DNA from: Octopus sinensis | Taxonomy: Eukaryota | Reading direction: 5' to 3' | NCBI RefSeq assembly: GCF_006345805.1 | Contig: NC_043021.1 | Span: 27,032,001 to 27,096,000, forward strand | DNA: 64,000 nt | Shown: positions 988 through 51,512 of the stretch, piece after piece | Layout: every line of letters starts with the position of its first letter | How positions within the stretch are numbered: position 1 is the first letter of the stretch | Notes under the pieces: model-generated | The model's database searches: none | What the model saw: the letters and a program-made list of their open reading frames with translations, nothing else | What the model was told of the DNA's origin: nothing | Position numbers and translations under genes: made by a program

Positions 988-2804
988 GTCATTTACTTTT
1001 AATCTGCATGTTTGATGCAATCACCTGCCGGGGCACACCCAGCGCCCTAGGGCAAGTGAAGGTTAAGAGTTGTTGAAATATAGCTGAAAGCTTGGGGAGG
1101 GGAAGTAGAGAAATATCTCCATGTAATACAAACACAAACATTTACATTGATAGGGTTTTTCTAAGGATGTGGGCAGTACTTGTTAGCACAATCTTTTGGA
1201 TTTCCTTGAGACATGGTTTTCCAGGGATATTGTCTAGGTGTTTCTGACATCCCTTTTTTATCATACCTAGGGCACCTACAATAACAGGAACAGTTTTTGT
1301 TTTAAGATTCCACATCCTCTGTATTTCGATTTCCAGGTCCTTATATTTACTAAGTTTGTCAAATTCCTTGACAGATACATTTTTATCAGTGGGGACGCTT
1401 ACTTCTATTAGTCTGCAGGTATTTTCTTCCCTGTCTTTAACAATTATGTCTGGTCGATTAGCCTTGATCGTTCTGTCAGTGTTGACTGGAAAATCCCAGA
1501 GGACGGTGACATCTTTACCTTCAACAACTGGCTGAGGGTGGTGTTCATACCAGTTAGCAGGAGTGTCGGATTTGTAGTGTTTACATATCTTCCAATGTAT
1601 ATACTGTCCTACCCTATCGTGGCGATTTTTGTATTCGTTTGGTGTCAGCACAGGACATCCCGAAACGAGATGGTCTATCGTTTCGTCAAATGTGTCGCAG
1701 AATCTGCATTTAGGGTCAGTACCGTTTCGGAGAACGTTAGCCTGGTAATTTCTGGTAAACAAGCTTTGATCTTGTGCTGCCATTATGAAACCTTCAGTCT
1801 CTGCTTTCAATCCAGAGCTCTTCAACCCCTGATGGGTTGTTGCTTGGTCTACATCAGCATTTTGGCTTCGGAGAATATATTGTCCATGCAGGGGCTTCTG
1901 GCTCCACCGCCTCTCAATTTGATTCTGCCCGTTCTTTTTTGCAGTCTGCTTGATTCGCTTTGCTTGCTTGGTAGCAGTGGTTTCCGGCTCTTCATCTGAT
2001 TCAAGGTTAATGTCTAGTTCCCTTTCGAACTTATAAGCTTCCTTCACAATAGAATGTAGCTTTTTGCTGCTTTCGTGTTCGCACACAAGTCGCAGCATCC
2101 AGTCCTTTGTACTAGATAGGTACCTGTTCATTCCTACAGTAGAGGTCTTATAGCACAGCTCTAATTGCATCATTCCTCTCCCCCCGCTGCTTCTAGGTAG
2201 GTACAAGCGGTCTACATCTGCCTTAGGGTGGTGCATGCTCTTGGATGTCAGTAACTTTCTTGTCTTCCTGTCCAAGCGTTGGAGTTCCGTAAGGTTCCAG
2301 TTAATGATGTTAAAACTGTACTGGACTACTGGAAGTGCCAGGGTGTTAATGGCCTCAATGCAATTTTTGGAGTTGAGTTCAGTCTTCAGTACAAGCCTTA
2401 TTCTCCTATAGTATTCCTTTCTTATTTTTTCCTTCATAGTAGCATGATGTATACCATCTCCTTCGTTGATTCCTAGGTATTTGTAACTTTCCTGTGGGTC
2501 AAGTTCCTTGATGGTAGTGTCAATATCTAATTTAACAGAAGCTGTTTGCCTGAGCTTGCCTCTTACAAAAGTTGCTTTAGCACACTTATCAAGGCCAAAA
2601 TCCATTCCAATATCATTGCTAAACTCTTTAACAGTTGTTAGCAGCCCTTCTAGCTCTTGGTCATTCCTGGCAAACAGCTTTAGGTCGTCCATATAGAAAA
2701 GGTGGTTTATTAACTTACTAAAAACTTTGTACCCATATCTGGTACTATCCAATTCGTTTGAGAGTGGGATCAGTGCCATGCAAAAAAGTAATGGGGAGAG
2801 GGAG
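988..2804 (-). mobile_element. 5'-truncated R4/Dong-like non-LTR retrotransposon (RT C-half, CCHC finger, REL endonuclease), frame uninterrupted
   Basis: Open frame 2804->1142 with SLSPLLFC, YMDDLKL, YKYLG, ETEGFIMAAQDQ, CRFC..ETIDHLVSGC, RHD, PDII..E..K.KY; (TAA)n on both sides, the known Dong target. Confidence 0.9.
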
Positions 2805-2879
2805 TTATTATTATTATTATTATTATTATTATCATTATTATTATTATTGTTATTATTATTATTATTATTATCATTATTA

Positions 2880-3610
<731 letters not shown>

Positions 3611-10755: not shown

Positions 10756-12309
10756 TATTACTATATCCTTCCGATTTTATTTGGTATAATATTGTTTCAG
10801 CTAGATGTAGCTGATATTTCTCGCAGGTCGAATGACTGTGTAGACGCCTCATAGAAGTTCGTTGGTTATTTTCAGTTAGTTTCAAGCATTTGCAGATATT
10901 TGAGTTTATTTTCCATAAAGTTCATCGTTTCTCTGAATTCTTTACAGTTTTTAGGATTACACAGCCATTCTTTCCTTATTTGAAAAAAAATTCTTTTTAC
11001 CTTATTCCATTCTTTAAAAAATTTCATGTATAGATTACAGTTCCGGAAATTCGGCACTGCTGGGACCGGAATAGTACCAGATTATGAAATATGCAGATGC
11101 ACTGGAAGTCAGTAATAAAAAATTAAAATCAATGAGATAAATGTTTGAAGAAAAAAGAATAAAACCTTCGTGCTATGCAGATGAGTGGTTAGACAAACAA
11201 TGTAACCCGATATCAATAAATAAAAATAACAAGATGATACTGTATTATTTTACATAAGTTGCTCACTACTTTTATTATATTTTGGGAAAGATTCACCTTA
11301 TTAAATGTAAGTAAGAAACTAGTTTAAAAGTTCGGAGACAAGTGTTGTTAATGGCAGGCCATTCTGGTGCAAACAAGTAACTCTAATTTACAGAAGCTTC
11401 AATATCTGCCGATTTCTTTTGTCTGGAGAAATTAAGTTAGAAATACCATGTTGAATTTTGAGGTTCCTAAGCCATCTAACCGCAAAGACACAAATCTATG
11501 TGATACCACTATATTCCTGTAATTGCTTGGCGTTTTTAATAACCATTGACCTTAAAATTCGCCTACTCTCTGATCACTTTGCATTAAATCACTTAACACT
11601 AATTCTGAAAATATTGTCATTCTTTTATATATCTTTGCCACGCATCAATACATTTTAACATGTCTTTGAATCAGACATAAATTGTATCAACTTGTCATTT
11701 TGTTTTTTAATATCAGAAATTGTTAAAAAAAAACTCTTCTTTATAATCGCGTGCAACATTGTTTCGGTTTTCGCCTCTTTTCAAATACTGTATCATTTTC
11801 AATTTCCGTGAACAATATGAACGTTAGCTGTATTCTTTTCACATCTTCAGTTTGGCTACATTTATTAAAATTTTCTCTATTCACCGTGCTTTCCTCTTTT
11901 ATCAGGTTGTCAATATATATATTTAATTAAGTTTCAAGATTTTGTTTTAATTCAGTTGGCTTTAGTATTTCTCTCTAAAATTGGATGATTTTTTTCACTA
12001 ATGGAAGGGCGATATATAAGTAGAGGAGAGCTATAAAACTCTTTGATTCTGGTCCTTGTTCTTTCTTTTTAACTTGGATGGAGACAGTTGAGAAGTAATG
12101 TGGGCGACTTTTGACTGCACTTGAATAATCGGGGAAGTACAAATAAATATATAAATATTTATATAAATAAAAATGAAATACAATATGTGCAGGCACGTGA
12201 CTTCTGGTGCAGTTCGATTGCGCGGCACTCGGGTCGACCAATGCATTCGTTGCGAATTTGGTAGAAAAAAACTGTATGGAAGTTTGTCGCATTTATATAT
12301 ATATATAAA

Positions 12310-12627
12310 TATATATTTCGTTTTTGGATTTGGTTTGCAAGATTCTTTATGTGAGTTCGTGTGTTGAAGCATATTCTGTTGTATCATTCTCTTGTTGCCT
12401 TATAATTTAACACACTCACCAGTAAAATTTCCACTTATTTGTTATTTTTATTTTCCTAAAATTTTCGTTGCGCCTCACAACCTTTTCAAGAGTCAAGACT
12501 ATTGAAAAGGTTGCAACATAACGAAAATTTTAGGAAAATAAAAAATAAGAAATAAGAAGAAATTTTACTGGTGAGTGTGTTAAATCATAAGGCACAGAAA
12601 GAAAATGACTCTCCTCAGACACAACAG
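12310..12627. mobile_element. Fold-back (palindromic) MITE-like element; empty relative of the LIS1-carrying arms
   Basis: 12376-12494 pairs with 12497-12627 around a 2-nt loop; the core matches aaaattttcgttgcg..accttttcaatagtc of 40890-41019. Confidence 0.8.
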
Positions 12628-14981: not shown

Positions 14982-15675
14982 TGTTTGACTTTTGCTTTAT
15001 ATTTGTACAAGTTGGCTCCAAGTCTCACCCAGAGACCTCAAGAGACAACAAGTTGGAAGTTCGTGATGTTGTTATGCCTAGTGTGCCAAATTTTTGGTTT
15101 TGCATTTAGTGTTGTACTAGTGAATGTCTTAAAAAAACAAAACAAAAAACCCCCGAAAATTATGTTTGTTTTAAAACTTGAGATTACATAGAAAGTAATT
15201 TGCGTAGGATTTGAGCAGTTCCCATGAGCACTATCTTTTGAATTTCTGCCATTTTGGGGTTTCCTGGTATCTGAGTTAGGTAGCAATCAGCCCCTTTTGC
15301 TATCATTCCCAAGGCACCTATGACTACAGGTATTGTTTTAGTCTTCAGGTTCCACATTTTTCTGATTTCTATTTCAAGATCTTTATACATGCTCAGTTTT
15401 TGGTAGGTCTTGACAGATACGTTTATATCGATTAGGACAGTCATATCAATGAGGAGGCATGTTCTTTGTCTGAAGTCTTTCAATATGATGTCTGGCCTAT
15501 TTGCATCTATCTTTCTGTCAGTTTGAATGGTGAAGTTCCAGAGGAGTGAGATGTGTCATTTTCAAGCACTGGAGGTGGTTTGTGTTCCCACCAGTTTTTT
15601 TCATGGGGCAAATCCAGGTTTTTGCAGATTACCCAGTGAATATATTGTGCAGCTCTATCATGCCTGTTGAGATAC
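14981..15675 (-). mobile_element. R4/Dong-like LINE 3' fragment (REL domain plus 3' UTR)
   Basis: RPDIILKD..LIDMTV..KLSMYKDLEIEI; 3' UTR nearly identical to that of 15777; (TAA)n flanks. Confidence 0.88.
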
Positions 15676-15694
15676 TATATTATTATTGTTATTG

Positions 15695-15776
<82 letters not shown>

Positions 15777-15777
<1 letters not shown>

Positions 15778-17973
15778 TGTTTGACTTTTGCTTTATGTCT
15801 GTACAAGTTGGCTCCAAGTCTCACCCAGAGACCTCAAGAGACAACAGGTTGGAAGTTCACGCTGTTGTTATGTCTAGTGAGCCATAAATTTGTTTTTTTT
15901 TTGTGTTGTACTAGTGAATGTCTAATACATAAAAAAAAAGTTTGTTTTAAACCTTGGGATTACATAGAGAGTATTTTGCGTAGGACATGAGTAGTTCCCG
16001 TGAGCAATATCTTTTGAATTTCTGCCATTTTGGGGTAGCAATCAGTCCCTTTCGCTATCATTCCCAGGGCACCTATGACTACAGGTATTGTTTTAGTCTT
16101 CAGGTTCCACATTTTTCTGATTTCTATTTCAAGATCTTTATATTCGCTCAGTTTTTGGTAGGTCTTGACAGACACGTTTATATCGATTGGGACAGTCATA
16201 TCAATGAGGAGGCATGTTCTTTGTCTGAAGTCTTTCAATATGATGTCTGGCCTATTTGCATCTATCTTTCTGTCAGTTTGAATGGTGAAGTTCCAGAGGA
16301 GTGAGATGTGGTCATTTTGAAGCACTGGAGGTGGATTGTGTTTCCACCAGTTTTTTTCATGGGGCAAATCCAGGTTTTTGCAAATTACCCAGTGAATATA
16401 TTGTGCAGCTCTATCATGCCTGTTGAGGTACTCTGTAGGCGCTAGAAGACTGCATTTGGAGACAACATGATCAATGGTTTCATTTTGTTGTCGGCATACA
16501 CGACATGTTGGGCTACTGCCGTTCTTTAATATGTTGGTCTGTTGGTAGGCATTGCTCTTGAGCTGCTATGATAAACCCCTCTGTTTCAGATTTTAAGCCA
16601 GAGGCCATTAGCCATTGATGGGTCAGGGCTTTGTCAATATCTGCATTATTCGCTCTCTTTGGATATTTGCCATAGAGAGGTTTTTCTTGCCATTTATTAT
16701 TCAGAATATCTAAGGCCGCAGTTTTGGCACGGGTTTTCATGCGCCTAGCTTTTTCTGTGCTTGTTTCTTGTATGTCTATCTCTAATTCCGAAATTGGTTG
16801 TATTCGGAATTCACTTAGATATTCCTTTGCCTGTTTTGTTACTGAGTATGATGCTTTCTTGTTTTCATGTTTTGAGGCAAGTTTTAACATCCAGTCCTCA
16901 GACTTTTTCAGGTAGGTGTCTAGGCCAATTGTAGCAATCTTCATTGTTATTGCCAGTTGCAAAAGACCACGGCCTCCCTCTTTTCTTGGCAGATAAAGTC
17001 GTTCTGTATCTGCCTTAGGGTGGTGCATTCTATGCATTGTCAACAGTTTTCTTATTTTTCTGTCGAGCTGACATATTTCAGTAATTGACCAGTTAACAAT
17101 ATTGAAACTGTAAGTCACGACTGGTATAGCTAATGCATTGATTGCTTCGATCCTGTTTCTTGCATTCAGCTCTGTCTTGAGTATTGCTCTCACTCTTCGA
17201 TAGCATTCTCTCCTGATCCTTTCCTTCATCTCTGAATGCCTTATTCCGTTCCCTTCAATTACCCCTAGGTACTTGTAGCTCTCCGCTGGGTCTAGTTCTT
17301 TTATGACATTCTGCTGGTCAAGGTTAACGTTAGATGTTTCTGTCATTTTTCCTTTGATAAAGGTAGCTTTTGCACATTTATCGAGGCCGAATTGCATTCT
17401 GATGTCGTCACTGAATTGTTTGACCATCGCTAGTAAGCCCTTGAGTTGTTGGTCATTTTTTGCAAAGAGCTTTAAAATCATCCATGTAAATGAGATGATT
17501 TATATTTTTATCAAACATTTTATACCCGTACTGCGCGTCATTGAGCAGTTTTGAGAGAGGTATTAAGGCTAAACAAAAGAGGAGTGGTGACAGTGAGTCA
17601 CCCTGGAAAATGCCACACGAAGTTTTTACATCACCAGCATTTAGGGATTCATTGTCACTGTTCAGAGTTAGTGTGGTTCTCCATGATCTCATACTTACAG
17701 TCAAAAAGTTTCGCAGAGTAGGTGCTATTTTATACTTTTCCAGGCATTTCTTAATCCAGCTATGTGGTAGGCTATCAAAAGCCTTTTTATAGTCTATCCA
17801 GGCTATTGATAAGTTTTTGTGTCGTTTGTGACAATCCTCTAAGATCATCTTATTGATGAGTAGCTGATCTTTACAACCATAGGATCCACGTTTACATCCT
17901 ATCTGTTCATTAGGGAATATGTTGCTGTCTATTAAAAAACTATAGGTATATTCCGTCAGGACAGATGTTAGCG

Positions 17974-17975
<2 letters not shown>
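15777..17975 (-). mobile_element. 5'-truncated, frameshifted R4/Dong-like LINE
   Basis: WIDYKKAFDS, GIFQGDSLSPLLFC, YMDD, YKYLG, ETEGFIIAAQ, RHD, RPDII spread over ORFs 17453-17848, 16513-17481 and 15960-16367. Confidence 0.9.
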
Positions 17976-18040
<65 letters not shown>

Positions 18041-18122
18041 TAGTTTTATTTTTATAGCGTGCTTTCACTTCACTACCGAGCGCAGCTCTGTGTGCCTTGG
18101 GTATGTGCTGTGATTTGTTGTG

Positions 18123-24001: not shown

Positions 24002-24034
<33 letters not shown>

Positions 24035-24042
<8 letters not shown>

Positions 24043-24752
24043 AAAGGGCTTAGTAAAATAAATTACTTTGCCGCATACTGAACTCATTAGAAATAGCAGC
24101 TAAAAAAACTTTTTTAAAGCTATTTCTAATACTTAACGAAAATCTCTCTCATATATAGTGTTTGCTTAATTCAACTCACAAAAGTTTGGGGGTAAGGACA
24201 TCGAAAAATCAAATGCTAAGGTTATTAATGCTTCGGATTTTACCGAAATAAGCATAGTGTTTGATGATTTTAACCCACGCTGGTGGAAAGGGGAGAACAG
24301 AGATTCTTCGCTTGCTTATTTTGAATTTGTTGGCACTGTTAGTTACGAGCAGATCTTCGAAAGGGTATGTTCTTATTTTCAGTGTTTCCAAATCCAAACC
24401 AAGGAATTTCTGAGCTGATGATAGAAGTGTTGTTTTTGACTAATCTTGAAACGTACGTTCTCAAATAACCTTAGCATTTGATTTTTCGATGTCCTTACCC
24501 CCAAACTTTTGTGAGTTGAATTAAGCAAACACTATATATGAGAGAGATTTTCGTTAAGTATTAGAAATAGCTTTAAAAAAGTTTTTTTAGCTGCTATTTC
24601 TAATGAGTTCAGTATGCGGCAAAGTAATTTATTTTACTAAGCCCTTTTATATAATGTAATAATTTGAATTCGCCTTGAATGGTCCCTTTGCATACTGAAC
24701 ACTTGGTGAAATTGATTAATAATTAATTAATTTTGCCCTCAATTGTTGAAAT

Positions 24753-27904: not shown

Positions 27905-27910
<6 letters not shown>

Positions 27911-28247
27911 ACAACTTCTAAGTAAGGGCTAAAGAAAATTATTTCAATGCCAATATGCTGATTACAGACTATTAAATCGTCAATTTCCACATATTATTTA
28001 CTCGCTACAGAAAAAACCGAAGAACGGAAATCGGGCAAGCCGGATTTCAGTTCTCCGGTTTTTGCTGTAGCGAGTAAATAATATGTGGAAATTGACGATT
28101 AATAGTCTGTAATCAGCATATTGGCATTGAAATAATTTTCTTTAGCCCTTACTTAGAAGTTGTTTATATTTTTAACCGTAAAAGTATTTTAATATGCTGC
28201 CACATTTTTTGATGGAATTTTTTTCTGTAGAAAAAAAAACTTCATCC

Positions 28248-35899: not shown

Positions 35900-36700
35900 T
35901 ACAATAATATGTTACATTACTCGGTAGTCAAGATAAAACTCTGAGTTTCAGATGCCGAAGTGGAAATCCACAACACCACCTTCTCTTCGGTTATCTGGCT
36001 ATTTGAAAACGCTATGAAAAAATACCGTTAAAAATGAAGGGAAATTACTCTGTTATAACTCTGCTTGCCTGCGTACTTATACATCGCTCGCATTTTTCGT
36101 CATAAAAATTATATAAAAATACATAAAAATATATAAAAATATATAAAAATATAAATTCTTCTTGGGACATAACATAGAAAGCTGTTCTATTGTTTTCTTT
36201 AGGGGACCAAAAACGTAACAGAAATTTAGTCACATGTGGGCATGATCCGAAAAGCTCTGTCCTTGTATTTAGACATGTAGTAGGGTCTAAGCTGCTTTTC
36301 CAGATAAGCCATCTCTCCATGTCGCATAGACCGCACCTTCCGCTGCCGTTAGTATAGGGCTTACATTTGGCCAAAATCTTCCATTGTATGTTATAATCGA
36401 CACCTTTATCTCTTAAAGACCAAATATGATTAGATAATTGTGTCGCTTTTCTTTTGTTCCAGTGCCTAAAGCTCAAAGTGTGGTTATTGAACCTGGCCTT
36501 GAAATTACCCTCTGTAAGGCCCACGTATTTCTTCGTCGAAACGGTGTCTTTAGTGGTTATAGAGTTTACGGTAGCTTCATATATGATGGTCTTGGACATG
36601 CAAGCTCCATTTAGCGGGCACAATTCTTTATTCCTGCATGAACAGCTGTTTTCTTGTTGTGTTTTTTGTATGTTATGTTTGATTATGTTTTTAAAATTGT
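35900..36700 (-). mobile_element. Penelope-like 3' fragment encoding a C-terminal GIY-YIG endonuclease with CxxC, in (TA)n
   Basis: ORF 36045-36623: CPLNGAC..IIYEATV..YVGLTE.NFKARFNNH..SF..LSNHIW..CGLC..E..LN. Confidence 0.85.
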
Positions 36701-37256
36701 TATCTTACCGTTTTATCAATATATATCATATATATATATACTTATATATATACATGCTTATATATAAATATATATATATACATATATAAATACACTCACA
36801 CTTATATGTAAATACATATGTATATATATATAATTATACATACCTACATATACTTACATACATGCATATACATACATACACACACACTAGGCTTCTCAAA
36901 ACCAGAAAAGAAAAAGTTAACTCGAAGACTACAGATCCAATCCATCACTGGAACTGTAAAAATCTGTAAAACATTCCAAAAGTTTATCATTTTAATATAT
37001 ATGAGCATGTCAAGATATATACAAATATATGCATGAGAATACATACATAAAGCAAAACAGACAAATCTGCACACATACATACATACATACACACATGGTG
37101 CGTAAGATATTTGAGGACGGATTTAAGTTTATATAAAACAGATATATAATAACTGATAATAACTTCCTTTATCAAAAAATGCTATGAGGATAAAATAATC
37201 CTTCTTTTCTATAATGTTCAATAAAGCCACCTTCAGCTCCAACAACTGCTTCTATA

Positions 37257-39484: not shown

Positions 39485-40644
39485 TATATATATACACTAT
39501 AATGGAGAAAGCTGCTTATTAATTAGGTGTGTAGCAATTACTAAAAGTACTAAAAGAAAGCAATTATTAAAGGGTTGACCGTCGGGAAATATTTTTACAA
39601 ATTCACGTTCTAAGAAATTTCCTATAATTTCGATTTCTCAAGTTTATTGAATTTTTTAAATTCCAGTTTCTCGCATATTTAAATATTCATTGCATCCAAT
39701 TCATAAATTTAAATATTCATTGCATTCACCGCGGAGGATTCCATTTTTATTTGTAAAGTCTCACTTTCTCTTTTAATGTTTTCATTTTAAGTTTTAATTC
39801 GCTGTTTGGAAAACCGACAGTTTATTTTATTAATGTATACTTAATATTAAAACATTATTTATTGAATGGAAATTTTTAAAATACCCGTATATTTTTTGTA
39901 AAAAAATTTAAAAGTGATTTTGTTGTTATGGCTGTTTTGAACGCTATAAGCCTTACAGTAAAACTATCCGGACCGATTCTGGCCATTTTCCTTTTTAACT
40001 TAAAAACTATGGGAGGAACCTTTTCGGTAAAAAACACAAAAGAAAACAAATTGTAAATATTTTCAGAGGAAAAAGGGGAACAATTCAAAGGAGATTTCGC
40101 TGTTGTTTCTAGCACAACTCAAACTACCCTCTCTTTTCATTCTCACATTCATTTATGTTTTTTCAATATTTTTCTCCCATTAAACTCATTTTATGGAATG
40201 ATGAGGCTAAAGTAACACACACGTGATCCATTGGTAGAAGAAAAACAACAAAATAAATCCTAATCTGAATTTTTACCGCCATAGTCGCTTTGAAACCGCA
40301 ACCTGTTCGTGCTGCATCATTTTGTGAAGTTTTCAGCACATAATCTCAGATCAAGTTGCTTGCTGCGCAAGTACATCTGCGTAATTTAAAAAAAATCACT
40401 GTGGATAAATACCAGCAATGACCTTCTCAGAAACAATCGGGAGCAAGGAGTGGGGTTGTCAAAAATTAATAATTTCTCAGATTTTCGCTTAAAATCAAAC
40501 ATCAAAAATTAGTGTCCATAGTGCTAATCAAGATACGTTATTAAAGCGGCCTACAAAGGAACTATGGGCCTAAGGAATCTATTTTGTACTATTTTTTACC
40601 ATTCGTTATAGAGCTAAATTTCAGATTGAACTAAATGAAACTAA

Positions 40645-41019
40645 ATATCTTTGTCCTGCATTGCCTAATTATTTGCCTTTCCTCACTACTTAAAACTATA
40701 CCTACTGACTCAAAAGGATGCTACCTTCAGCCGAGTTTGAGCAAGACAATCACACAACCACAACTTCAATCGCTATTCTAACTGGACTTTTGGTGGTACA
40801 AATATTTGAGAATTCAGAACACACACCTATTAGTCTGAGTTATCCTGACAAAAGCTCCTCTAACTCTCTCTCTCTCTCTGTATATATATTATTGCGTCTG
40901 GGGAGAGTCCTTCTCCTTTAGTATCTTATTACTTAACACAATCATCGGTTCGATTTCCACTTATTTACTTATTTTTTCAAAAATTTTCGTTGCGTCTTGC
41001 TACCTTTTCAATAGTCATT
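40645..41019. repeat. Left arm of the long inverted repeat flanking the LIS1 fragment
   Basis: Near-perfect reverse complement of 41599-41980 (a few differences plus microsatellite length change). Confidence 0.95.
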
Positions 41020-41290
41020 CTGTAGGACTTCTGTTGCCACGAGTCGGGGCTCCGGCATTCACCTCTTTCTCCGCTTCAACTAATTTTGATTCAAGGTCCA
41101 TCACCTTTTTCTGTAGTCGGATGACTGAGGTCCACTTCTTCTCAAGTAACCCAGCATATTTCTTGTCAATCTCTCCTGGCATTTCTGTCTCCTTTTGGAA
41201 TGCATCTAAAGAGTTCAGGTATCCATTGGCACTAAGATAATCCGCAACTGCTTTGTTCAGTTCCTCACGCTGTCTTTGGGAGAGTACCAT
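41015..41290 (-). pseudogene. LIS1: Intronless, 3'-truncated copy of LIS1 (PAFAH1B1): LisH plus coiled coil, 91 aa, open frame
   Basis: [50 protein letters not shown] matches the LIS1 N-terminus; accATGg Kozak; stops where conserved EWIPRPP would continue; no WD40 region seen. Confidence 0.92.
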
Positions 41291-41598
41291 GGTGTCGAAA
41301 CAGTCAGCAAGATACACACCACTTGCAACTTTTCAATGCAAAAAAGCTTATCGCTCGTGTATGGAGTGTGTGTTTCAATTACAAGACGGAGAGAGGAGGG
41401 GGGGCTTGTTGACTTATTTTAGCTTTAATCCAAATAACATCCAAAACTTAACACTTTTGGTTAGGCCACATTCTCACGAAATTTTGAGAAAATAAACAGC
41501 CATGGTAGTAAATATGTTGGAAGAGTTAATTAGATAATTGTTAACTAATTAAAGTTGGAACAAGACAACTGCCACTGTCACAAACAACGGGTGACGTC

Positions 41599-41980
41599 AA
41601 TGACTATTGAAAAGGTAGCAAGACGCAACGAAAACTTTTGAAAAAATAAGTAAATAAGTGGAAATCGAACCGATGATTGTGTTAAGTAATAAGATACTAA
41701 GGAGAAGGACTCTCCCCAGACGCAATAATATATATATATACAGAGAGAGAGAGAGAGAGAGTTAGAGGAGCTTTTGTCAGGATAACTCAGACTAATAGGT
41801 GTGTGTTCTGAATTCTCAAATATTTGTACCACCAAAAGTCCAGTTAGAATAGCGATTGAAGTTGTGGTTGTGTGATTGTCTTGCTCAAACTCGGCTGAAG
41901 GTAGCATCCTTTTGAGTCAGTAGGTATAGTTTTAAGTAGTGAGGAAAGGCAAATAATTAGGCAATGCAGGACAAAGATAT
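41599..41980. repeat. Right arm of the long inverted repeat, ending in (AT)n
   Basis: Reverse complement of 40645-41019. Confidence 0.95.
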
Positions 41981-42000
41981 ATATATATATATATATATAA

Positions 42001-42471
42001 AATTAAAATCAAAATGAGGGTGAAAATTTGGATATTAATTTAATAACATCCATTTAGTAAATAGTATTTTATACATAAATATACGAGGGAACCACTATGT
42101 GGAAGCCCTTACGTTATTTTGAAGGATTTTTGAAGATAACCGCAGATATAATAGGTGGGACTACATGCATTTTCGACCTCGTGTTGATATCTGGCATGGA
42201 GTTCGACAAATTACATCTTAATATGAGGATCTCACTGATGATCTGCAGATGTATTGTCTAAGTAAAATTGCATAATAATTTATTAACAGTGAAACAATTG
42301 TTTGGGATTAATCTATAGTTTTGTTATTTTTCATTTGTCTTGCTCGCTTACGTTTCTGGTGTGCTAAATTTTCTGGAGAACAATTCTTAGTGGTTGAGAC
42401 CTATGCAGATCTCTTTTAAGCGTAAGGGCTTCCACATAGTGGTTCCCTCTTATATTTATGTATAAAATACT
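42001..42471 (+). mobile_element. Penelope-like terminal element with ~50-bp inverted repeat, in (TA)n
   Basis: 42063-42113 pairs with 42421-42471; hammerhead in the spacer. Confidence 0.7.
42229..42308 (+). ncRNA. Type I hammerhead ribozyme candidate
   Basis: ATCTCA-CTGATGA-TCTG...CAGT-GAAA-CAATTG-TT-TGGGAT: 6-bp stem I, intact cores, palindromic stem III. Confidence 0.7.
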
Positions 42472-42472
42472 A

Positions 42473-42539
<67 letters not shown>

Positions 42540-49924: not shown

Positions 49925-51512
49925 ACAATTTAATGTGGCATTGCCTGTTGATTATTTTATGAGCCATACGCTCATGAGACATCTGGCTATACTTCAGTAT
50001 GCTTTCAATGAAAGCATACTGAAGTATAGCCAGATGTCTCATGAGCGTATGGCTAGCATACTGAAGTATAGCCAGATGTCTCATGAGCGTATGGCTAGCA
50101 TACTGAAGTATAGCCAGATGTCTCATGAGCGTATGGCTAGCATACTGAAGTATAGCCAGATGTCTCATGAGCGTATGGCTAGCATACTGAAGTATAGCCA
50201 GATGTCTCATGAGCGTATGGCTAGCATACTGAAGTATAGTCAGATGTCTCATGAGCGTATGGCTAGCATACTGAAGTATAGCCAGATGTCTCATGAGCGT
50301 ATGGCTAGCATACTGAAGTATAGCCAGATGTCTCATGAGCGTATGGCTAGCATACTGAAGTATAGCCAGATGTCTCATGAGCGTATGGCTAGCATACTGA
50401 AGTATAGCCAGATGTCTCATGAGCGTATGGCTAGCATACTGAAGTATAGCCAGATGTCTCATGAGCGTATGGCTAGCATACTGAAGTATAGCCAGATGTC
50501 TCATGAGCGTATGGCTAGCATACTGAAGTATAGCCAGATGTCTCATGAGCGTATGGCTAGCATACTGAAGTATAGCCAGATGTCTCATGAGCGTATGGCT
50601 AGCATACTGAAGTATAGTCAGATGTCTCATGAGCGTATGGCTAGCATACTGAAGTATAGCCAGATGTCTCATGAGCGTATGGCTAGCATACTGAAGTATA
50701 GCCAGATGTCTCATGAGCGTATGGCTAGCATACTGAAGTATAGCCAGATGTCTCATGAGCGTATGGCTAGCATACTGAAGTATAGCCAGATGTCTCATGA
50801 GCGTATGGCTAGCATACTGAAGTATAGTCAGATGTCTCATGAGCGTATGGCTAGCATACTGAAGTATAGCCAGATGTCTCATGAGCGTATGGCTAGCATA
50901 CTGAAGTATAGCCAGATGTCTCATGAGCGTATGGCTAGCATACTGAAGTATAGTCAGATGTCTCATGAGCGTATGGCTAGCATACTGAAGTATAGTCAGA
51001 TGTCTCATGAGCGTATGGCTAGCATACTGAAGTATAGCCAGATGTCTCATGAGCGTATGGCTAGCATACTGAAGTATAGCCAGATGTCTCATGAGCGTAT
51101 GGCTAGCATACTGAAGTATAGTCAGATGTCTCATGAGCGTATGGCTAGCATACTGAAGTATAGCCAGATGTCTCATGAGCGTATGGCTAGCATACTGAAG
51201 TATAGCCAGATGTCTCATGAGCGTATGGCTAGCATACTGAAGTATAGTCAGATGTCTCATGAGCGTATGGCTAGCATACTGAAGTATAGTCAGATGTCTC
51301 ATGAGCGTATGGCTAGCATACTGAAGTATAGCCAGATGTCTCATGAGCGTATGGCTAGCATACTGAAGTATAGCCAGATGTCTCATGAGCGTATGGCTAG
51401 CATACTGAAGTATAGTCAGATGTCTCATGAGCGTATGGCTAGCATACTGAAGTATAGTCAGATGTCTCATGAGCTCATAAAATAATCAACAGGCAATGCC
51501 ACATTAAATTGT
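49925..51512. repeat. Inverted duplication enclosing a 42-bp tandem array (34 full units plus 1 partial, 50013-51474)
   Basis: Unit agcatactgaagtatagYcagatgtctcatgagcgtatggct; 49925-50008 is the reverse complement of one unit plus the right flank; hairpin centre atgctttca-a-tgaaagcat. Confidence 0.95.

Follow-up and report, generated by a model that had tools for sequence, protein, structure and literature searches.

A foldback junction holding the cDNA of a host gene, CHML, has been described from human cells, where it is mediated by L1 (PMC11702581; this and all other articles are cited from the part of the text that was available). The steps proposed there are the ones we consider below, in which a DNA end is extended by reverse transcription (RT) of a host mRNA, and the 3' end of the cDNA anneals to its own strand and leaves an inverted duplication. 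In mouse zygotes, pieces of spliced mRNA without poly(A) but with microhomology are captured at breaks, according to the available text of PMC4516963. Two further systems involve retroelement termini. The accessible part of PMC3846280 describes genes of Adineta vaga framed by Penelope terminal repeats (pLTRs), and LTR-mediated retroposition yields incomplete retrocopies, frequently truncated at the 3' end, that have retroelement flanks and show microsimilarity at each of the two joints (PMC5131818, in part). Pack-TIRs, finally, are single-copy captures within a resident repeat by break repair, with a donor on the same chromosome and with microhomology (PMC8277862, in part).

The locus described here occupies positions 40645..41980 of the window, that is, of the whole 64,000-nucleotide stretch of Octopus sinensis DNA that was analysed, and consists of a partial LIS1 cDNA between long inverted arms. 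It would share its succession of steps with the L1 case, which differs, as far as the available account goes, in its full-length cDNA, in poly(A) priming at an L1 endonuclease site, in a large copy-number change and in its origin in induced human clones. The octopus locus has instead an apparent internal priming over 4 nt without poly(A), a local duplication of 375 bp that apparently rejoined the flank at a TA repeat, a natural animal genome as its setting and a probable break within a Penelope terminus. With the RT-product-mediated break repair of mouse zygotes it has in common a partial spliced copy, no poly(A), short microhomologies and no target-site duplication (TSD), whereas the breaks there were made by Cas9 and the available text shows no inverted duplication of the flank.

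As in A. vaga, host sequence lies between Penelope terminal repeats, one of them inverted. The A. vaga units, in the part of the article at hand, retain introns, carry an 8-bp TSD and two direct pLTRs, and have moved as units, whereas in the octopus the introns are gone, TSD and tail are absent and the arm includes flanking sequence foreign to the element. The locus also recalls LTR-mediated retroposition in its partial copy, its microsimilarity and its flanks, but that process, in the same partial source, needs direct LTRs and an integrase, and in the octopus the flanks are resident pieces of Penelope type in inverted arrangement. Pack-TIRs, which resemble the locus in the traits given above, differ in having DNA templates inside TIR transposons, and the study, in its available part, discarded intronless captures by design. 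Among the papers listed in literature searches, none deals with intronless Penelope-associated retrocopies or with this locus. We take the locus to be a variant, arisen in a natural genome, of fold-back repair extended by RT, for which close precedents are known from human cells and mouse zygotes.

Organization of the locus

Alignment bears out the initial annotation of two inverted arms of ~375 bp around a 579-bp spacer. The arms (40645-41019 and 41599-41980) are 96.9% identical over 386 alignment columns, differing by one substitution, one 1-nt indel and the length of a microsatellite (an 8-nt gap), and the spacer between them measures 579 nt. The features are as follows.

40579..40860, plus strand: repeat A, old interspersed repeat, unclassified; other copies are 75-87% identical, many aligning out to 40579-40595
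40645..41019, plus strand: left arm, seemingly resident and putative template of the inverted duplication; part of A, then (CT)n(TA)n, then a piece of B
40890..41019, minus strand: repeat B, the 3' terminus (pLTR), without a tail, of an element that is old and Penelope-like, assigned by similarity search and by the GIY-YIG ORF upstream in the family
41015..41290, minus strand: predicted 91-codon frame, the portion of LIS1 with LisH and coiled coil, with a stop supplied by the arm
41016..41019, minus strand: 4-nt microhomology AATG between LIS1 exon 5 and arm; putative RT priming site
41020..41598, minus strand: spliced LIS1 cDNA, 100% identical to the parent
41598-41483, minus strand: cDNA exon 1
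41482-41259, minus strand: cDNA exon 2
41258-41180, minus strand: cDNA exon 3
41179-41105, minus strand: cDNA exon 4
41104-41020, minus strand: cDNA exon 5, first 85 nt
41599..41603, minus strand: 5-nt microhomology TCATT between LIS1 5' end and arm; putative fold-back point
41599..41980, minus strand: right arm, apparently 40645-41019 newly copied in inverted orientation; a substitution and a 1-nt deletion are derived, and the microsatellites are longer than on the left
41978..42000, unstranded: (TA)n tract, junction of the right arm with the right flank via a few common AT bases

Comparison of the outer ends reveals no TSD, and no poly(A) is present at the locus, where the cDNA ends inside exon 5.

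A spliced LIS1 copy and its parent

The minus-strand frame 41290-41015 comprises 91 codons, and its TGA is contributed by the arm. The predicted product matches LIS1/PAFAH1B1 (PDB 1vyh_C, E 7.8e-31; Pfam LisH_PAC1, E 1.3e-16), in agreement with what had been read from the sequence at first. Against the 2.72-Gb genome the spacer gives six matches (6/6 candidates), which are the locus itself and five exon pieces of a parent gene at C25:24.71-24.76 Mb, on the same contig and 2.3 Mb from the locus. Each piece is 100% identical, leaving 0 differences over the 579 nt and upholding the earlier view of a recent event. All four cDNA joints fall exactly on GT..AG boundaries of the parent, the absent introns measuring 5429, 27305, 6044 and 11493 bp (about 50 kb), and the spliced 5' leader of the parent accounts for the 308 nt that precede the ATG.

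The exact removal of four introns shows that the copy came from spliced RNA, as the initial annotation had proposed; a parent encoding these codons in a single exon is ruled out. Its further statement that the 5' part is kept without 3' end or poly(A) also stands, the cDNA running from exon 1 to the middle of exon 5. The parent is separate, intact and intron-bearing and continues past exon 5 through WD40 exons to the C-terminus (L080-L082), which removes the objection that this might be the only LIS1 locus. The copy has the two hallmarks of a processed pseudogene, exact intron removal and a separate intact parent with introns. It lacks what marks a LINE retrocopy of the canonical kind, namely a retained 3' end followed by poly(A), and a TSD. 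Its spliced form occurs in only one genomic copy (all six candidates scored). We regard the product as a partial processed pseudogene, lodged in a hairpin and with little or no activity, that does not transpose as a unit. The parent has promoter-like motifs near the position of the cDNA 5' end, and the predicted 91-aa piece contains the N-terminal dimerisation region of LIS1.

The arms and their relative age

Among 40 scored of 2237 candidates, near-identical copies of the 375-bp arm are found at this locus only. Repeat A continues ~65 bp to the left of the arm boundary, so the outer boundary of the arm does not coincide with the end of an element. Each arm is pieced together from A and B, which are old repeats unrelated to each other, and a microsatellite; the two arms are not the ends of one element. 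The idea of an mRNA-capturing fold-back element, put forward in the initial annotation, is not sustained by arms that are composite, single-copy among those scored and, on the left, apparently pre-existing. We also considered the arms as the ends of a MITE or TIR element and rejected this assignment, as they are composite and not dispersed, and repeat A passes the left boundary. No readable ORF was found in repeat A. Repeat A (40579-40860, and at L011, L012, L014, L033) also occurs in inverted pairs with one arm longer, a Penelope-like layout.

Two of the arm differences can be polarised. At both, the left arm holds the state of the family (26/28 copies; 23/23 scorable of 28) and the right arm the derived state. 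A Penelope-type tail is absent from both arms and from the 15 kb to the right. Together, the family state at the diagnostic sites, the lack of a tail on either arm and the A sequence in contigs of runs X3 and X4 (below) indicate that the left arm is seemingly resident and predates the event, and that the right arm is its new inverted copy.

Repeat B is a Penelope-like terminus

Repeat B constitutes the inner 130 bp of each arm, and its best other copy is 90% identical (40 scored of 2010 candidates). We assembled 48 distinct B loci, 28 from similarity and 20 new ones from an exact 18-nt pattern (22 matches); three of the 51 rows in the corresponding table merely extend other loci of the set. 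At 17/20 loci, B lies 321-1082 nt downstream of a match to the endonuclease side of an ORF, in the same sense. This ORF has a GIY-YIG domain (E 1.5e-06, above cut-off), and its reverse transcriptase is recognised from a YVDD motif and from Atlas neighbours with HTH_animal, RVT_1 and GIY-YIG members; Pfam RVT_1 itself gives no match in the family B ORF. A reverse transcriptase followed by a C-terminal GIY-YIG endonuclease upstream of the terminus is a mark of Penelope-like elements.

Inverted B pairs occupy 20 of the 48 loci and, by eye, carry a tail on one arm only in 19/20. An inverted 5' copy with a tail at one end is the layout of Penelope-like elements in the available text of PMC8557442, and the accessible part of PMC3846280 describes it too. 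The earlier guess of a Penelope-type process finds support in the inner 130 bp of each arm, which are a Penelope-like 3' terminus; a Penelope enzyme is a candidate. The spacer is at most 59 nt in 15/20 pairs, and fold centres cluster near the break site of our locus, a clustering that is partly ascertainment, the loci having been chosen by similarity to a query ending there. In the left arm, B breaks at a short palindromic spot near the fold site of many family copies. The initial annotation had suggested a look at other paired arms for host cargo; no host coding frame was recognised by eye in the spacers of the 20 other inverted B pairs.

Family B looks old and dead. None of 150 scored of 3357 candidates has a near-intact ORF, the longest open frame being 428 aa, and no hammerhead ribozyme was found by regular expression or by Rfam on eight loci, in copies that are old and decayed.

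Single loci show further arrangements of B. In L086 an inverted pair surrounds the endonuclease frame of the family itself. At L054:582-1634 inverted B arms surround a reverse-transcriptase-like frame unlike that of B and without a Pfam match, which may be a nested insertion or a template switch. In L049, immediately past the B match, the same palindromic spot is where B adjoins what looks like the 3' end of a LINE frame. An older inverted B pair with one tailed arm, the normal layout of the family, is found within the window at 12296-12624. A further Penelope-like family is represented in the window by a GIY-YIG frame at 36045-36704 (minus strand; with Pfam E 0.0041 it stays below cut-off), and a piece of L021 is 96% identical to it; this family may be young and a candidate enzyme donor.

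Junctions

Microhomology is present at both ends of the cDNA. The AATG at its 3' end (4 nt), noted previously, is confirmed, and a second match, TCATT (5 nt), lies at its 5' end. The latter would extend to 8 nt if the resident B went on with GAC, as most family copies do. At local base composition the rough chance of a match of at least 4 nt is 0.021 and that of at least 5 nt 0.0067. DNA folding of four junction stretches revealed no unusual local hairpin (z-scores -1.25 to 0.04).

Proposed mechanism and alternatives

The locus is a one-off scar and not a new mobile element. We consider it probable that it arose in a single recent event of RNA-templated repair with fold-back. A break or nick inside the resident Penelope-like terminus would have left a plus-strand 3' end in CATT, which would pair with AAUG in exon 5 of the spliced LIS1 mRNA and be extended by RT through exon 1, up to or near the mRNA 5' end. 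The spliced template of this step is observed, whereas direction and priming are deduced from strand geometry: the plus strand is LIS1 antisense, and first-strand synthesis would thus have run from left to right. The 3' end of the cDNA, complementary to TCATT of the same tract, may then have folded back, and 375 nt of the left flank would have been copied a second time as an inverted repeat, a step suggested by the composite make-up of the arm and by the derived state of the right-arm differences. The strand would finally have rejoined the far side of the break at (TA)n, with loss of the intervening DNA, probably the rest of the old Penelope copy. Candidates for the reverse transcriptase are a LINE, an active Penelope family and a host polymerase.

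As fold-back repair predicts, RT-derived sequence lies between inverted copies of one DNA end, with microhomology at the joints. The model is supported by the exact splicing, the 0/579 differences, the microhomology at both cDNA ends and the AT overlap at the outer joint, and equally by the A-microsatellite-B composition of the arm, the extension of A beyond the left boundary and the derived state of the right-arm changes.

A more specific and less likely version assigns the event to a Penelope enzyme. Tentatively, a Penelope-like RNP may have nicked a resident pLTR of its own kind, begun RT inside a spliced host mRNA and closed by fold-back; the closing fold-back could then, by an equally tentative extension, be the step that normally makes the inverted 5' terminus of Penelope. 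According to the available part of PMC11167929, a Penelope-like protein cuts at ATT, its own pLTR included, and starts internally on RNA without homology, behaviour that fits the site but not the microhomology. Against this version, ATT is common, family B looks dead, and that protein needs no homology at its start site. Penelope-mediated mobilisation of a host gene would be expected to leave both pLTRs new and a TSD or a tail; here the left arm is seemingly resident, and TSD and tails are absent. LINE and Penelope families recently active in Octopus vulgaris are described in PMC13282606 (available in part), and either could supply the enzyme if the present genome is that of a close relative. 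If a Penelope enzyme was at work, Penelope, known for intron retention, would also make intronless 5'-end retrocopies without poly(A), and the thousands of old pLTRs in the genome would be landing sites for them. The fold-back would then have gone 245 nt beyond the pLTR into the flank, and the inverted terminus would be copied from target DNA, not from RNA.

The right arm carries two changes outside the microsatellites and the cDNA none, which simple self-templated fold-back does not predict. A homolog template, error-prone synthesis or a consensus error would each explain them, and they leave room for a sister or homolog template in place of self fold-back. A ready-made LIS1 cDNA might accordingly have bridged two replicated ends, of a sister chromatid or homolog, through microhomology-mediated joining, the right arm deriving from another molecule. 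The two derived differences and the microsatellite lengths would become allelic, the match would be 8 nt instead of 5 nt if an intact B went on with GAC, and the available texts of PMC11702581 and PMC4516963 describe both routes. We regard this bridging as unlikely, since the cDNA would have to stop precisely where a 4-mer fits and both arms would have to break at one and the same base, and one primed end accounts for both more simply.

Fold-back repair from one primed end also has to be weighed against a chimera formed at the RNA level, in which a retroelement switched template between a pLTR read-through transcript and LIS1 RNA and the product was inserted beside its source in the inverted-terminus layout of Penelope. 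Inverted pairs are routine in family B and may enclose the ORF of the family itself (L086) or part of a different RT frame (L054), and LTR elements switching template at short matches yield partial 3'-truncated retrocopies in the accessible part of PMC5131818. The geometry speaks against it, as a sense read-through RNA and the LIS1 mRNA cannot both template the first strand of right arm and spacer. The tail that nearly all family pairs carry on one side is missing from both arms here, no other B pair reaches far into its flank, and the scored family matches contain no near-full ORF. Such a chimera is quite improbable.

Support from sequencing runs

Near-perfect inverted repeats are a recognised form of artefact, and a fold-back chimera or transcript sequence introduced during assembly or polishing could in principle mimic the locus. 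Four of 24 runs (X1, X3, X4, X6) were compared as contigs over 41000-42420, leaving out the repeats at 41723-41771 and 41966-42024. X1, a run of genomic size (2720 million letters), has a 254-nt contig that spans exon 2 and 30 nt of exon 3 with 0 differences, its short side of 30 letters being one under our 31-letter bridging rule; the spliced exon 2-exon 3 junction is thereby backed by short-read contigs in 1/4 runs. The exon-1 contig of X1 ends exactly at the exon end, whereas that of X3, X4 and X6 extends into intron 1; the exon-5 contig extends into the intron in X3 and X6. Both X1 observations support the fold-back model.

The A part of the arm is present with 0 differences in contigs of X3 and X4, neither of which shows a sign of the retrocopy; an arm identical where exon-1 contigs enter intron 1 again fits fold-back repair of a resident sequence. 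A contig with the extra base of the left arm occurs in all four runs compared, possibly from another family copy in X3, X4 and X6. Zero cover of exon 2 in X3, X4 and X6 was left out of the evidence, as the filter can remove records. RNA-like runs contain 0.28-0.35 of the words, approximately what the LIS1 part alone would give.

Depth in X1 is 65.7 on exon 2 and 40.1 on the mostly parent-only exon-1 contig, a difference that is a weak sign of an additional copy in heterozygous state. The assembly may have been made from the very sample of X1, and the insertion is possibly still heterozygous. No haplotig with the empty site was found among 40 scored candidates.

An artefact would suit the near-perfect repeats, the 100% identity to the parent and the absence, among the contigs listed, of any across either arm-LIS1 junction or the outer joint. 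It sits poorly with the letters of X1 over the exon 2-exon 3 joint, with its break at the exon-1 end unlike the three other runs, with non-random junction microhomology, with arms that differ at polarisable sites and with flanks of ordinary genomic sequence on both sides. We conclude that the structure is real and an artefact very unlikely.

A Pack-TIR-like TIR/Foldback DNA element that acquired LIS1, as a retrocopy or as cDNA, when a gap was filled and that can move as a unit would share long inverted arms, a right-end TA, a same-chromosome parent and microhomology with the Pack-TIRs of PMC8277862 (available in part). It can practically be dismissed, as the arms are not TIRs of a dispersed family but composite, single-copy among the candidates scored and, on the left, not delimited by the end of an element; B is the terminus of a retroelement, and the spliced spacer is found once in the genome.

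Age and significance

From 0/579 differences and the octopus rate quoted in the available part of PMC13282606, the event is younger than about 0.7-1.4 My, a rough bound. As a natural trace of probable RNA-templated repair the locus is unusually clear, since all its junctions can still be made out, and it is a test case for the formation of the inverted termini of Penelope. It suggests that retrocopy screens relying on poly(A) and TSD miss 5'-end copies. Transcription of the locus, if it occurs, would produce an RNA duplex of 375 bp and a 91-aa piece of LIS1 that could interfere with the parent. As a single event whose function would be at most putative, it carries limited weight.

Other features of the window

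A second near-perfect inverted repeat, at 24032-24658, was considered as a further cargo case and rejected, its spacer being present at 99-100% identity in all 40 scored candidates. It is a young MITE-like element with 195-bp arms that are 99.5% identical, and copies of its spacer often lie in tandem or inverted clusters ~546 bp apart (for example C3:22.436-22.439 Mb, C1:120.634-120.637 Mb). The element is probably active or was so recently.

On the minus strand, 1142-3043 contains an open LINE-type frame of 633 aa (RVT_1, E 9.4e-10), 5'-truncated at an (AAT)n tract, and related fragments lie at 15184-18064. A palindrome of 265 bp with 95% self-complementarity is located at 27905-28169. At 49962-51512, ~35 copies of a partly palindromic 42-bp unit follow each other at 99% identity, and both strands are open for ~520 codons. 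Directly to the right of the LIS1 locus, at 42046-42487, lies a MITE-like repeat with 68-bp arms, which is present in high copy in 4/4 runs.
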